From Escherichia phage vB_EcoM-fFiEco06, in the sequence record NC_054914.1: a DNA stretch of 64,000 nucleotides; one strand, 5' to 3'. Positions 15,453 to 61,517 of this stretch are shown piece by piece. Under the pieces are notes generated by a model. The model was given only the letters and a program-made list of their open reading frames with translations. It did no database searches and was not told where the DNA came from. A program made the translations under genes and the position numbers. The stretch's first letter is position 1; each line of letters begins with the position of its first letter.

Positions 15453-15848
15453 TACTCTATTACTGGAAGCCAGTTGTAGTTTTATCTGCTCAATATCATC
15501 AGGGTTATCGATGACTGAAAAGCGTATTTCTACTATCAAAGTATAATCATCATAAACCGGTATTACATTAACTGCTAATTTATCAATACGTGGCTCATAG
15601 TTTCTTACTGCGCTTTCGATATTACGCTCAACCGTGTCAGCAGTAAGAGGAGTCATATTCTCAAAAAGTTGGTCAGATAAATCGCATCCAAATTCAGGGT
15701 CAAACGGTCTTGAACCTTTTCTTGTTGTAATAATTCCTAAAAGACTATTTTTAATTGACCTTAATCCAAGTGATCTTGAAACGTCTTTGTTCCAATCCAT
15801 TTTCATCTCTGGGTCAATATCAGAATAAAGCTTATTAATATTTGCCAT
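15450..15848 (-). CDS. 25: baseplate wedge protein gp25 (132 aa)
   Basis: Length and position match T4 gp25. Confidence 0.9.
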   Translation of the reverse strand: MANINKLYSDIDPEMKMDWNKDVSRSLGLRSIKNSLLGIITTRKGSRPFDPEFGCDLSDQLFENMTPLTADTVERNIESAVRNYEPRIDKLAVNVIPVYDDYTLIVEIRFSVIDNPDDIEQIKLQLASSNRV

Positions 15849-16474
15849 TACAATAGCTCAAAGAATTCTTTGAGTCCTCTTATTACATGAGCGTGAGTTT
15901 TTCCACACTCTGGACATTTAATTGGAACAGCCAAATAAACAGTAGGCTTTAAAAGCATATCTTTTATAGCTACAATATCTGACTCTGCGATGATAGAATA
16001 TAAATCTTCCAGTTCTTTTTCATTTAAGTCTTCAACTGGAATGCTTTCACCGTTAGCATGAATCGTTTCTATACATGATACTATCATGTGGGCTATATTT
16101 TTATCATCAAAAATTTTAGGGTAATGGAATTTAATTTTAATGTCACCCAGTGTATACCAGAGGTCTTCTGGTGCATCTATTTGTGTATGTAATAGATTTA
16201 TATGGGTTGGTATTTCAGTTCCACAGGTGCACTTCCAGGAGTTTTCGTGATTAACTTCTCCAAGAGAATGCGCCCATAAATGAATCAGTAATAGTTCTGA
16301 TTCTTGGCGGTTTAAATCTTTTGCATTTGTACAGTCTTTGATTAGCTTTTTAACAATCTCTTCTACTGAACCATTCTTTTTAGCAGTAATAAGTTCTAGA
16401 TATTCTTTAAGAGTAAATGCGCGACAGTTGATTATTTTAGAACCAACTCTCACATCAAATTTGTATTCATACAT
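15848..16474 (-). CDS. 26: baseplate hub protein gp26 (208 aa)
   Basis: Length/position; divergent from gene 51. Confidence 0.85.
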
Positions 16475-38961: not shown

Positions 38962-40549
<1,588 letters not shown>

Positions 40550-40557
40550 AATAAAAT

Positions 40558-40571
40558 GGGCCTTGCGGCCC
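40558..40571 (-). terminator. GGGCC-GCAA-GGCCC hairpin between nrdB stop and denA start
   Basis: 5-bp GC stem read on minus strand, followed by AUUUUAUU. Confidence 0.5.
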
Positions 40572-40576
40572 ACTCC

Positions 40577-41755
40577 TTAAAAGTATTTTTTAAAACTCAT
40601 CATAACTTTATCATCAACATCATTATCAATCTGTGCAACAAGGTAAGATGACAATTCTACTTCTTGTGGCGCAGATTGAACATTATCAGAATTAAGATAT
40701 TCACGAATCCAAGGATATGGATGTTTAACCGGAGCATCGGTAATTGGGCATGGAAGACCACACTGCTTCATACGAGATACAGTTAAGTAATCAATAAAGC
40801 TCCACATGCTATTTGTATTTAATCCAGGAACATCTCCATCTTTAAATAAATGAACTGCCCAATCTTTTTCTTGGCGGTTAACTTCCATGAAAATATCAAC
40901 TGCTTCTTGTTCACACTCTTGAGCAATTTTAACCCATTGATCGCCATCAGTACCAGATTGAAGTTGACGAATAATATATTGGGTGCCTTTAAGGTGAAGC
41001 TGTTCATCGCGTGCAATGAACTTCATAATCTTGGCATTACCTTCCATGATTTCCATGTTCTTATGGAAGTTAAAGGTACATGCAAAAGATACATAAAAAC
41101 GAATAGCTTCCAATGCGTTGATTACATGCAAACAGAGGTAAAGAGATTTCATTAGCTCACGCTTCCAATATGTCTCATGCTCAATAGCATCTTCAATAAC
41201 GTCTTCGTCTGCATTAATTTCTTTTTGGTATTCGATATCAGCTTTAGCGTTTTCCCAATAACGAGTTTTAATCAGAACATCATCATAATAACGTCCAATG
41301 GATTCAGCACGTTTCATAATAGCTTCATCTAATACAATCTCATCAAATACCTTCGATGGATCAGTATAAAGATTTCGCATGATATGAGTATATGAACGAC
41401 TGTGAATAGTTTCACTAAAAGTCCATGTAGCAACCCATGTATCAAGACTTGGGTCTGAAATTAATGACATAAGTACAGCAGACGGCGCACGACCCTGAAT
41501 GCTATCTAAAAGTGATTGATACTTCAGGTTGTTAGTAAAAATATTTTGCTGGTACTGAGGAAGCTTATTAAACTGTGCAGCATCCATCATCAAGTTTACT
41601 TCTTCAGGACGCCAGAAAAATGATAATTGCTTTTCGGTTAAATCTTCAAAAACTTTATGACGTTGAATATCATAACGCGCAATACCAAGACCTGAACCAA
41701 AAAACATAGGTTCTTTTAAAACATCAACTGGATTTGTATTAAAAACTGTGCTCAT
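40577..41755 (-). CDS. nrdB: ribonucleotide reductase small subunit NrdB, uninterrupted
   Basis: Continuous 392-aa ORF recognisable as R2. Confidence 0.9.
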   Translation of the reverse strand: MSTVFNTNPVDVLKEPMFFGSGLGIARYDIQRHKVFEDLTEKQLSFFWRPEEVNLMMDAAQFNKLPQYQQNIFTNNLKYQSLLDSIQGRAPSAVLMSLISDPSLDTWVATWTFSETIHSRSYTHIMRNLYTDPSKVFDEIVLDEAIMKRAESIGRYYDDVLIKTRYWENAKADIEYQKEINADEDVIEDAIEHETYWKRELMKSLYLCLHVINALEAIRFYVSFACTFNFHKNMEIMEGNAKIMKFIARDEQLHLKGTQYIIRQLQSGTDGDQWVKIAQECEQEAVDIFMEVNRQEKDWAVHLFKDGDVPGLNTNSMWSFIDYLTVSRMKQCGLPCPITDAPVKHPYPWIREYLNSDNVQSAPQEVELSSYLVAQIDNDVDDKVMMSFKKYF

Positions 41756-60681: not shown

Positions 60682-60687
60682 CAACAA

Positions 60688-60702
60688 GGGGGAAATGCCC
60701 CC
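60688..60702 (+). terminator. GGGGG-AAAUG-CCCCC hairpin + UUU after gene 37
   Basis: 5-bp G/C stem read directly. Confidence 0.55.
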
Positions 60703-60716
60703 TTTGGAGTATAATT

Positions 60717-61517
60717 ATGGCAGTAGTTGGTGTTCCTGGTTGGATTGGAAGTTCAGCCGCAAATGAAACAGGACAGCGCTGGATGAGTCAAGCGGCTGGT
60801 CAATTAAGATTGGGTGTTCCTTGCTGGATGAGTCAATTTGCAGGTCGCTCACGAGAAATTATTCACACCCTTGGAGCGGACCATAACTTCAATGGTCAAT
60901 GGTTCCGAGATAGATGTTTTGAGGCAGGTAGTGCACCTATAGTGTTTAATATTACCGGAAATTTGGTATCATATTCTAGAGACGTTCCTTTATTCTTCAT
61001 GTATGGAGATACACCTAATGAATATGTTCAGTTGAATATTGGTGGCGGCGTCCATATGTGGGGTAGAGGTGGACAAGGTGGATGGACCCATTCCGGCGGA
61101 GATGGTAATGGTCAACAAGGTGGTCATTGTATTCAAAATGACATCGGTGGACGATTAAGAATTAATAACGGTGGAGTAATTTGTGGTGGAGGTGGAGGTG
61201 GAGGTGGTATCGCTTATCGTCCTCACTCTGGTGCAAATTGGCAAGATATTGGTGGTGGTGGAGGAAGACCATTTGGCCCAGGAGGAGGCGGAGGTTATTC
61301 CGGCGGCGCAGCTTCTTATGATGGCCCAGGAGGTGGTTATAATTATGGTAATGCTCACTCTGGCCAGGGTGGTGATGCTGGCGCAAATGGACAAAATGCC
61401 TGGTATGATGGCGGTAAAGTTCTAAAAGTTGGAGCTGGTGGCGCTGCCGGATATGCTGTTATAGGATCAGCTCCAACATGGCAAAATGTTGGAGTAATAT
61501 ATGGTCCAAGGGTATAA
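60717..61517 (+). CDS. 38: gp38 receptor-binding adhesin (T2/T6 type, glycine-rich motifs), 266 aa
   Basis: Conserved N-terminal domain followed by Gly-rich motifs and variable segments; between 37 and t. Confidence 0.8.
61035..61451 (+). repeat. glycine-rich motif region of gp38 (GGG.., GGGGGGGG, GGGGG, GGGGG runs separated by variable segments)
   Basis: Poly-Gly runs in translation; GGT/GGA/GGC codon runs in DNA. Confidence 0.8.

Follow-up and report, generated by a model that had tools for sequence, protein, structure and literature searches.

Of ribosome-binding sites (RBSs) whose Shine-Dalgarno (SD) sequence is split from the start codon by an intervening hairpin, a review on T4 cites only two natural cases, those of T4 genes 38 and 25 (PMC3014915). 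Folding of these hairpins shortens the SD-AUG distance of 22 nucleotides (nt) at gene 38 to 5 nt and that of 27 nt at gene 25 to 11 nt, and mutations that destabilize the hairpin reduce translation of both genes (PMC3014915). The arrangement at gene 25, which was verified by lacZ fusions and dimethyl sulfate (DMS) probing, is confined to, and conserved among, close T-even phages (PMC3014915). We have analyzed a stretch of 64,000 nt from Escherichia phage vB_EcoM-fFiEco06 (NC_054914.1), which we call the window, and consider here the 27-nt junction between nrdB and denA, the latter being the gene for endonuclease II (EndoII). Sequence comparison makes it rather probable, in our judgment, that this junction is a split, or "accommodated", RBS of the kind present at genes 38 and 25, and the hairpin that it contains is a likely third example of a mechanism that is itself already known. 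An SD sequence located 23 nt from its start codon, as is the case at denA, would be essentially non-functional in linear mRNA given the known optima for SD spacing.

As minus-strand RNA, the junction reads ...UAC UUU UAA GGAG UGGGCC GCAA GGCCCA UUUUAUU AUG AAA GAA, with 27 nt between the nrdB UAA and the denA AUG. The two A's of the nrdB stop codon (40579-40577, minus strand, as for all parts of the junction) open the SD-like UAAGGAG, in which AAGGAG occupies positions 40573-40578 and the GGAG core positions 40576-40573. This core directly abuts a 6-bp hairpin, UGGGCC-GCAA-GGCCCA (40557-40572), having five G-C pairs and a closing U-A pair, which is made up of a 5' arm (40572-40567, GGGCC together with the closing pair), a GCAA loop of the GNRA tetraloop type (40566-40563) and a 3' arm (40562-40557). 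A U-rich 7-nt spacer, UUUUAUU (40556-40550), which holds no SD sequence and might act as a terminator U-tract or pair weakly with GGAG, then leads to the denA ATG (40549-40547) and its 136-residue open reading frame (ORF). Counted from the last G of GGAG to the A of ATG, the distance is 23 nt in linear RNA, well above the value of about 15 nt beyond which we regarded an SD sequence as too remote, and 7 nt when the hairpin is collapsed, which falls within the functional range of the known cases (5-11 nt). The stable hairpin therefore lies wholly between the SD sequence and the start codon, and no usable SD sequence is found at canonical spacing.

An earlier note, made from the sequence of the window without database searches, had placed a GGAG, a GGGCC-GCAA-GGCCC hairpin and the denA ATG in this order on the minus strand, and all three are present there. 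The separation of GGAG from ATG by the hairpin was also described correctly, although the gap was given as 20 nt and is 23 nt by our count. Its statement that GGAG is the only SD-like sequence holds if it is limited to strong ones; GGAG is the sole strong SD sequence before denA, but a weak second SD-like AAGG (40564-40561), composed of two loop and two stem bases and thus half-buried in the stem, lies 11 nt before the ATG. The T4 record X04140, which dates from 1986, marks two possible ribosome-binding sites here, this AAGG and the AGGA located at the stop codon. We considered the AAGG as a candidate for the real SD sequence and rejected it, as it is specific to lineages with the GCAA loop, is half-paired and is missing from relatives that have a UUCG loop.

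Searches based on DenA gave 44 viral contigs, to which named phage records were added, and the comparison set consisted of 23 distinct nrdB-denA junctions in which nrdB directly precedes denA. All 23 share one plan, from which, among the cases with nrdB immediately ahead of denA, contig L028 alone departs (see below), namely a stop codon, an (A)AGGA/GGAG core, a tetraloop hairpin and an AUG, and the named genera that possess the junction number at least five: Tequatrovirus, Mosigvirus (RB69), Jiaodavirus, Kanagawavirus and Muldoonvirus. The SD sequence touches the upstream stop codon in each of the 23 junctions, and the end of its core lies within 2 nt of the stem or, in some junctions, overlaps it by 1 nt. 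A GG-containing core is found at the SD position in 21 cases and GAGAGG in the other two, with GGAG itself being replaced by GGAA, GGAT, GGAC or GGTA in most genera. The loop is mostly C(UUCG)G, with GCAA or GUAA in T4-type phages. Linear SD-AUG spacing is 21-27 nt and mostly 22-23 nt, and intergenic length ranges from 24 to 32 nt; when the hairpin is collapsed, 22 of the 23 junctions have a spacing of 5-9 nt, the remaining one being contig L015 at 12 nt. Between the stem and the AUG there are 6-10 nt, and the sole value of 10 is again that of L015, the stem of which is shortened. Moreover, no SD 4-mer is present between the hairpin and the AUG in any of the 23 junctions.

The stem is preserved as a structure in these related phages, with compensatory changes. 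Pairing is retained by all of the stem variants (GGGCC, GGGAC, GGGGC, GGGAGAC, AGGGC and GAGGGC), and in an alignment of the 6-bp helix across the 23 sequences 94.9% of cells are paired, a percentage that is slightly lowered because the 5-nt loop of contig L024 shifts its register by one alignment column and was left uncorrected. Compensatory double changes are seen at four of the six pairs. The covariation score of this helix is 0.462, as against 0.163 +/- 0.032 for shuffled alignments, none of which (0/500) reach the observed value, and registers slid along the alignment score at most 0.20. In addition, the 6-bp helix is recovered independently by RNAalifold, with the SD sequence single-stranded. 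The earlier note had suggested that hairpin folding would bring the SD sequence to normal spacing, and this suggestion is supported by the layout shared with genes 38 and 25, by the covariation and by the conserved geometry of the 23 junctions. The features that do not vary, which are the SD sequence, the hairpin and the distances between them, point to a role in translation, and the folded hairpin would be expected to raise denA initiation.

Krischvirus, Nanhuvirus, the Aeromonas phages and contigs L042-L046 either lack nrdB as the immediate upstream neighbor of denA or were not alignable, and they were used as contrasts only. In Krischvirus Ec_Makalu_001 (contig L047, 1440-1500), the region before denA has a hairpin resembling a terminator, GGGCGGGA-GAAA-UCCCGCC, and after it an ordinary SD sequence (GAGGAAAGGA); the conventional order of hairpin and then SD is used in this genus, where nrdB is not the upstream neighbor. 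In Cronobacter phage LPCS28 (Nanhuvirus; contig L048, 1130-1170), the nrdB stop codon is followed by the hairpin AGGGAGC-CUCG-UGCUCCCU, which holds the only SD-like sequence inside its 5' arm, and then by UUUCUUUU and the ATG of an unrelated gene encoding 98 residues. This arrangement, with the SD sequence inside the stem, is related to the denA junction and yet different from it.

We also asked how often the pattern turns up elsewhere. A blind scan of both strands of the window, in which an SD 4-mer had to be followed after 0-2 nt by a hairpin of at least 5 bp with a free energy (dG) of -5 kcal/mol or lower and, 5-10 nt further on, by ATG, returned exactly two sites, denA and gene 25, and this result was unchanged when no ORF filter was applied. 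The gene 25 site, which is a reference and not part of the denA element, served as an internal positive control; it occupies 15846-15879 on the minus strand, with GAGG at 15879-15876, the hairpin CUCAAAG-AAUU-CUUUGAG at 15874-15857 and the ATG at 15848-15846. Shuffled windows contain 0.67 matches to the pattern on average, and a match with a dG of -10 kcal/mol or lower occurred in two of 60 shuffles. When a looser scan was run over the window together with T4 positions 1-100 kb and 157.5-168.9 kb, regions that jointly correspond to about one T4-type genome, the only real gene starts recovered were those of genes 25, 38 and denA, and the few remaining matches were internal or antisense ATGs and GTGs. 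An E-value scan of positions 40300-40800 against Rfam gave only sub-threshold chance matches, the best being L20_leader at 22.7 bits against a gathering score of 58.7. That the junction is more than a chance occurrence is settled by the fact that 23 distinct homologous junctions conserve it and show covariation.

The folding of the single sequence recovers the hairpin between GGAG and ATG in both the minimum free energy (MFE) and the centroid structure. The isolated hairpin has a dG of -11.6 kcal/mol, and the fold of a 91-nt context reaches -20.2 kcal/mol, compared to -12.55 +/- 2.74 kcal/mol for shuffled sequences (z = -2.79), with one of 200 shuffles being as good.

Several observations weigh against a split RBS at denA, and these are taken here together with the alternative explanations that they favor. 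In the single-sequence fold, GGAG pairs with the UUUU of the tail through three G-U pairs and one A-U pair at a gain of about -4 kcal/mol, and the SD sequence is predicted to be mostly paired, the probability that it is unpaired being 0.26. These values are consistent with a negative element, in which the hairpin extended by GGAG:UUUU pairing (40553-40576; -15.6 kcal/mol, as against -11.6 kcal/mol for the hairpin without this extension), found in both the MFE and centroid structures, hides the SD sequence and represses denA, the GGAG perhaps being cut by RegB in T4-type phages. RegB is annotated in T4 as cutting a subset of T4 mRNAs at GGAG, and this target motif is present at the denA junction. 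We nevertheless regard this alternative as very unlikely. The extension is built of G-U and A-U pairs that are missing from the RNAalifold consensus, and the probability of an unpaired SD sequence ranges from 0.05 to 0.87 among the relatives. From nearest-neighbor expectations, moreover, pairing of UAAGGAG with the anti-SD sequence should outcompete the GGAG:UUUU extension. RegB cleavage is not a conserved role of the junction because GGAG is replaced in most genera, although the pairing with UUUU or the RegB motif could add negative control that is specific to this lineage.

A second set of points against the split RBS concerns transcription. The short U-rich tail could be explained by a terminator alone, T4-type terminators commonly have a purine-rich stretch ahead of their GC-rich stem, and the SD-like signal at denA could partly be a compositional habit. 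If the hairpin were only a terminator or 3' stabilizer, AAGGA would be incidental and low amounts of denA product would be made from read-through RNA by SD-independent initiation involving S1 and the AU-rich leader. The element does resemble a Rho-independent terminator in having a G-C-rich stem, a stable tetraloop and then UUUUAUU; U makes up six of the 8 nt that follow the stem, and an ARNOLD terminator is annotated at the same spot in a 99% identical phage (MK373785). By a discriminant of the d'Aubenton-Carafa type, the values of which are to be read in relative terms only, the denA hairpin scores +24.7, comparable to unmistakable terminators elsewhere in the window. C(UUCG)G hairpins are often seen where T4-type genes end, Nanhuvirus has a similar hairpin close to nrdB with another gene behind it, and EndoII is required in small amounts only. 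Against this, neither the U-tract nor the discriminant is conserved as the hairpin is, since the discriminant falls below zero in about half of the junction types and the number of U's in 8 nt varies from 2 to 7 among relatives; in Muldoonvirus the hairpin is kept but the tail, GUAAAGCU/AUAAAGCU, has only 2 U in 8. A terminator also leaves unexplained both the GG(A) core in non-coding sequence and the fixed SD-AUG distance of 21-27 nt. Besides that of denA, eight strong hairpins of the window stand before gene starts, each with the SD sequence after the hairpin, whereas denA alone has it before the stem with the AUG a few nt after the stem, the denA start being 7 nt past it. Taken with the promoter evidence given below, these observations make it unlikely, if by no means negligibly so, that the hairpin acts in transcription or RNA stability only.

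Whether the hairpin doubles as the nrdB terminator, as the earlier note had proposed, is a separate matter, and here the proposal is plausible for the present lineage on account of the U-rich tail, the ARNOLD annotation and the discriminant but does not extend to the relatives at large. Termination or 3'-end protection is likely to be an additional, lineage-dependent role. A consensus terminator scan of the window did not list the denA hairpin, apparently because G-T pairs extend the stem into the T run, and neither Term-seq nor 3' RACE data for the site were found in the literature that we searched.

The arrangement of promoters bears on the same question. Neither a late promoter motif (TATAAATA) nor a MotA-box middle motif occurs in the stretch from the 3' half of nrdB to denA, and no sigma-70-type match above 9 of 12 is found there, the weak ones occurring at chance frequency. 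A MotA-box-like middle promoter, TGCTTCCACATGGAATGTGGTACTAT (40113-40138, minus strand), is located just after the denA stop codon, in the 52-nt gap before rnlA (gene 63), which suggests that rnlA has a promoter of its own and that the nrd transcription unit ends with denA. If this MotA-like site is a promoter, rnlA is independent of read-through at the hairpin and only denA is dependent on it, as indeed seems to be the case for denA. Because no recognizable denA promoter is present downstream of the hairpin, termination there must be leaky, and the lack of such a promoter also separates the denA element from a plain Rho-independent terminator.

Further points against the split RBS come from phages that do without it. 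In contig L028 (IMGVR_UViG_2974786931_000001, 1403-1510), the entire junction is lost and the end of nrdB, ...SFKKYL-TGA, overlaps the denA ATG in a direct stop/start overlap (ATGA) that has neither hairpin nor SD sequence; L024, which is closest to L028 by the N-terminus of DenA, retains the hairpin. In the Aeromonas phages, denA overlaps a different upstream ORF. Expression of denA by coupling can thus take place without any hairpin. These cases fit an alternative based on termination and reinitiation, in which the 30S or 70S particle is held, after nrdB translation, by the SD sequence adjoining the stop codon and the AUG is reached 27 nt downstream, the hairpin serving to shorten the path or to block back-sliding. 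Also consistent with it is the contact between SD sequence and upstream stop codon, which is seen in all 23 junctions and at the 37/38 and 26/25 junctions of the known split sites as well. As in stop/start-overlap coupling, denA adjoins nrdB with nothing between them except the element. The two arrangements differ, however, in that 27 nt and a stable hairpin separate stop from start at denA in the window, where no overlap is seen; an ATGA-type overlap occurs only in L028 and the Aeromonas phages. A hairpin of -11.6 kcal/mol should, moreover, hinder a scanning ribosome unless it is refolded, and the refolded geometry is that of a split SD site. For genes 38 and 25 the effect is credited to the SD-hairpin-AUG arrangement, and upstream translation is not mentioned (PMC3014915). 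We consider coupling of this type as the explanation for the junction to be distinctly unlikely.

The last point to be set against the split RBS is that our search of the literature found no denA fusion, toeprint, structure probing or N-terminal sequence. Neither PMC3014915 nor the other literature searched mentions denA as a split site, although an earlier remark in older papers is possible, and the T4 omics paper and the papers on EndoII biochemistry are silent on the denA translation start and on an nrdB terminator.

The split RBS presupposes that denA starts at the ATG, and here annotations differ. In the T4 RefSeq record (NC_000866, 137951), denA starts at an in-frame GTG, which corresponds to 40571-40573 on the minus strand of the window and lies eight codons before the ATG, and the product has 144 residues. 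If the GTG at 40573-40571 were the true start, the hairpin would fall within coding sequence, and it is true that GTG and ATG are in frame with no stop codon between them. The GTG, however, shares one base with GGAG and has no SD sequence upstream, which leaves it without a usable SD. An in-frame start upstream of the ATG is available in only four of the 23 junction types, the frame from the nrdB stop to the ATG varies (0, 1 or 2) and is interrupted by stop codons in several of them, and M1 of the 136-residue form is invariant in an alignment of 14 DenA sequences. An ATG start and 136 residues are likewise given in X04140, in the records of RB69 and other phages, and for the crystallized protein (PDB 2WSH). 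The T4 RefSeq start is therefore probably wrong, with the ATG being the real start and the hairpin untranslated, and we regard initiation at the GTG as extremely improbable.

Returning to the split RBS, the sequence of events that we envisage is as follows. Transcripts that continue from nrdB would carry denA, the hairpin and its U-rich tail acting meanwhile as a leaky intrinsic terminator or as a 3' stabilizer of nrdB mRNA. In the read-through nrdB-denA mRNA, the 16 nt between SD sequence and AUG would fold into the tetraloop hairpin. The 30S subunit would then pair with UAAGGAG, displacing the weak GGAG:UUUU wobble extension, and the hairpin would be accommodated on the 30S subunit so that the AUG, lying 7 nt beyond the stem base, could reach the P site. 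A ribosome terminating on nrdB would cover the SD sequence and melt the 5' arm. Because the SD sequence touches the nrdB stop codon, interplay of denA initiation with upstream nrdB translation is likely, and leaky termination would in addition hold synthesis of the nuclease low relative to that of NrdB.

A wider proposal can be built on these steps, but it is speculative and we think it rather unlikely to be right in full. The series "stop codon - SD - tetraloop hairpin - 6-9 nt - AUG" might be a reusable junction module of T-even phages, employed at 37/38, 26/25 and nrdB/denA, through which the state of the upstream ribosome governs downstream initiation. The split site would then be functional only in gaps between nrdB ribosomes, giving a low and constant EndoII:NrdB ratio by "anti-coupling", while the hairpin would also cut back transcription and shield the 3' end of nrdB; the ATGA overlap of L028 would be an alternative solution to the dosage problem. 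If this were true, 27 nt would be doing three jobs.

The surroundings of the junction are those of a T4-type phage. On the minus strand the genes are ordered nrdA (44071-41807), nrdB (41755-40577, ending ...SFKKYF*), denA (40139-40549, 136 codons plus stop, encoding a GIY-YIG endonuclease that matches PDB 2WSH with E = 6e-88) and rnlA/gene 63, an order that is the same as in T4 minus the nrdB intron, mobE and nrdB.1. Comparison with T4 positions 134000-142000 shows that nrdB is uninterrupted here, encoding 392 residues without the group I intron or I-TevIII, and that only 51 nt separate nrdA from nrdB, where T4 has mobE and nrdB.1. The segment 40100-41000 is 100% identical to Escherichia phage vB_EcoM-fHoEco02 and 97-99% identical to several hundred further phage records, which are largely T4-type (Tequatrovirus).

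The split-SD mechanism is already known, as is the upstream AGGA as a candidate RBS in the 1986 record, and understanding of the mechanism is unchanged by the denA case. What is likely to be new is denA as a probable additional split-SD site with unusually good phylogenetic support. A third natural example, if true, would make the split SD a recurrent design rather than a curiosity, and the denA junction offers covariation across at least five named genera in a layout that is almost superimposable on that of gene 38. The 27-nt junction may thus provide a compact system for studying how a stable hairpin lying between the SD sequence and the P site is accommodated on the 30S subunit. It also suggests how a phage could hold a DNA-degrading nuclease low relative to the abundant NrdB encoded upstream. 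With linear spacing assumed, gene finders and RBS models will overlook such genes or assign them a wrong start, of which denA in the T4 RefSeq record is an apparent case.

Of the two described systems, gene 38 is the closer in form. Its site, read from T4, is UAA-GGAG-(AGGGGC UUCG GCCCUU)-CUAAAU-AUG, with the hairpin in parentheses, and like the denA junction it has a UAA stop codon followed at once by GGAG, an abutting G-C-rich tetraloop hairpin, a spacer of 6-7 nt and then the AUG; the linear spacing is 22 nt at gene 38 and 23 nt at denA. The C(UUCG)G loop of gene 38 is common to most denA junctions of other genera, whereas the present phage has GCAA. The neighbors also differ, being late tail-fiber genes in the one case and the prereplicative nrdB and denA in the other, as does the tail, which at denA is U-rich and terminator-like and at gene 38 is CUAAAU, with a relative discriminant of -28.7. 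Moreover, the gene 38 site has been validated experimentally, and the denA site is predicted from sequence comparison. In the window itself, the ORF at the gene 38 position (60685-60720, plus strand; 266 residues, MAVVGVPGW...) differs from T4 gp38 (183 residues) and has a conventional start, with GGAG 7 nt upstream and a hairpin before the SD sequence. The gene 38 split SD is absent from this phage, and the 266-residue ORF presumably resembles a T2-type adhesin.

The gene 25 site, the "accommodated" RBS of Nivinskas and Malys at the 26/25 junction, is present in the window as UAAUAA-GAGG-A-(CUCAAAG AAUU CUUUGAG)-CUAUUGUA-AUG, and its linear spacing of 27 nt is that given in PMC3014915. It is like the denA junction in its succession of stop codons, SD sequence, hairpin and AUG, and has an 8-nt spacer between hairpin and AUG. 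Its 7-bp hairpin is, however, A-U-rich and weak (-6.4 kcal/mol, as against -11.6 kcal/mol at denA), its spacing collapses from 27 to 9-11 nt, and it has no terminator character, unlike the element at denA. Finally, whereas the gene 25 arrangement is limited to close T-even phages (PMC3014915), the denA junction extends to at least five named genera.

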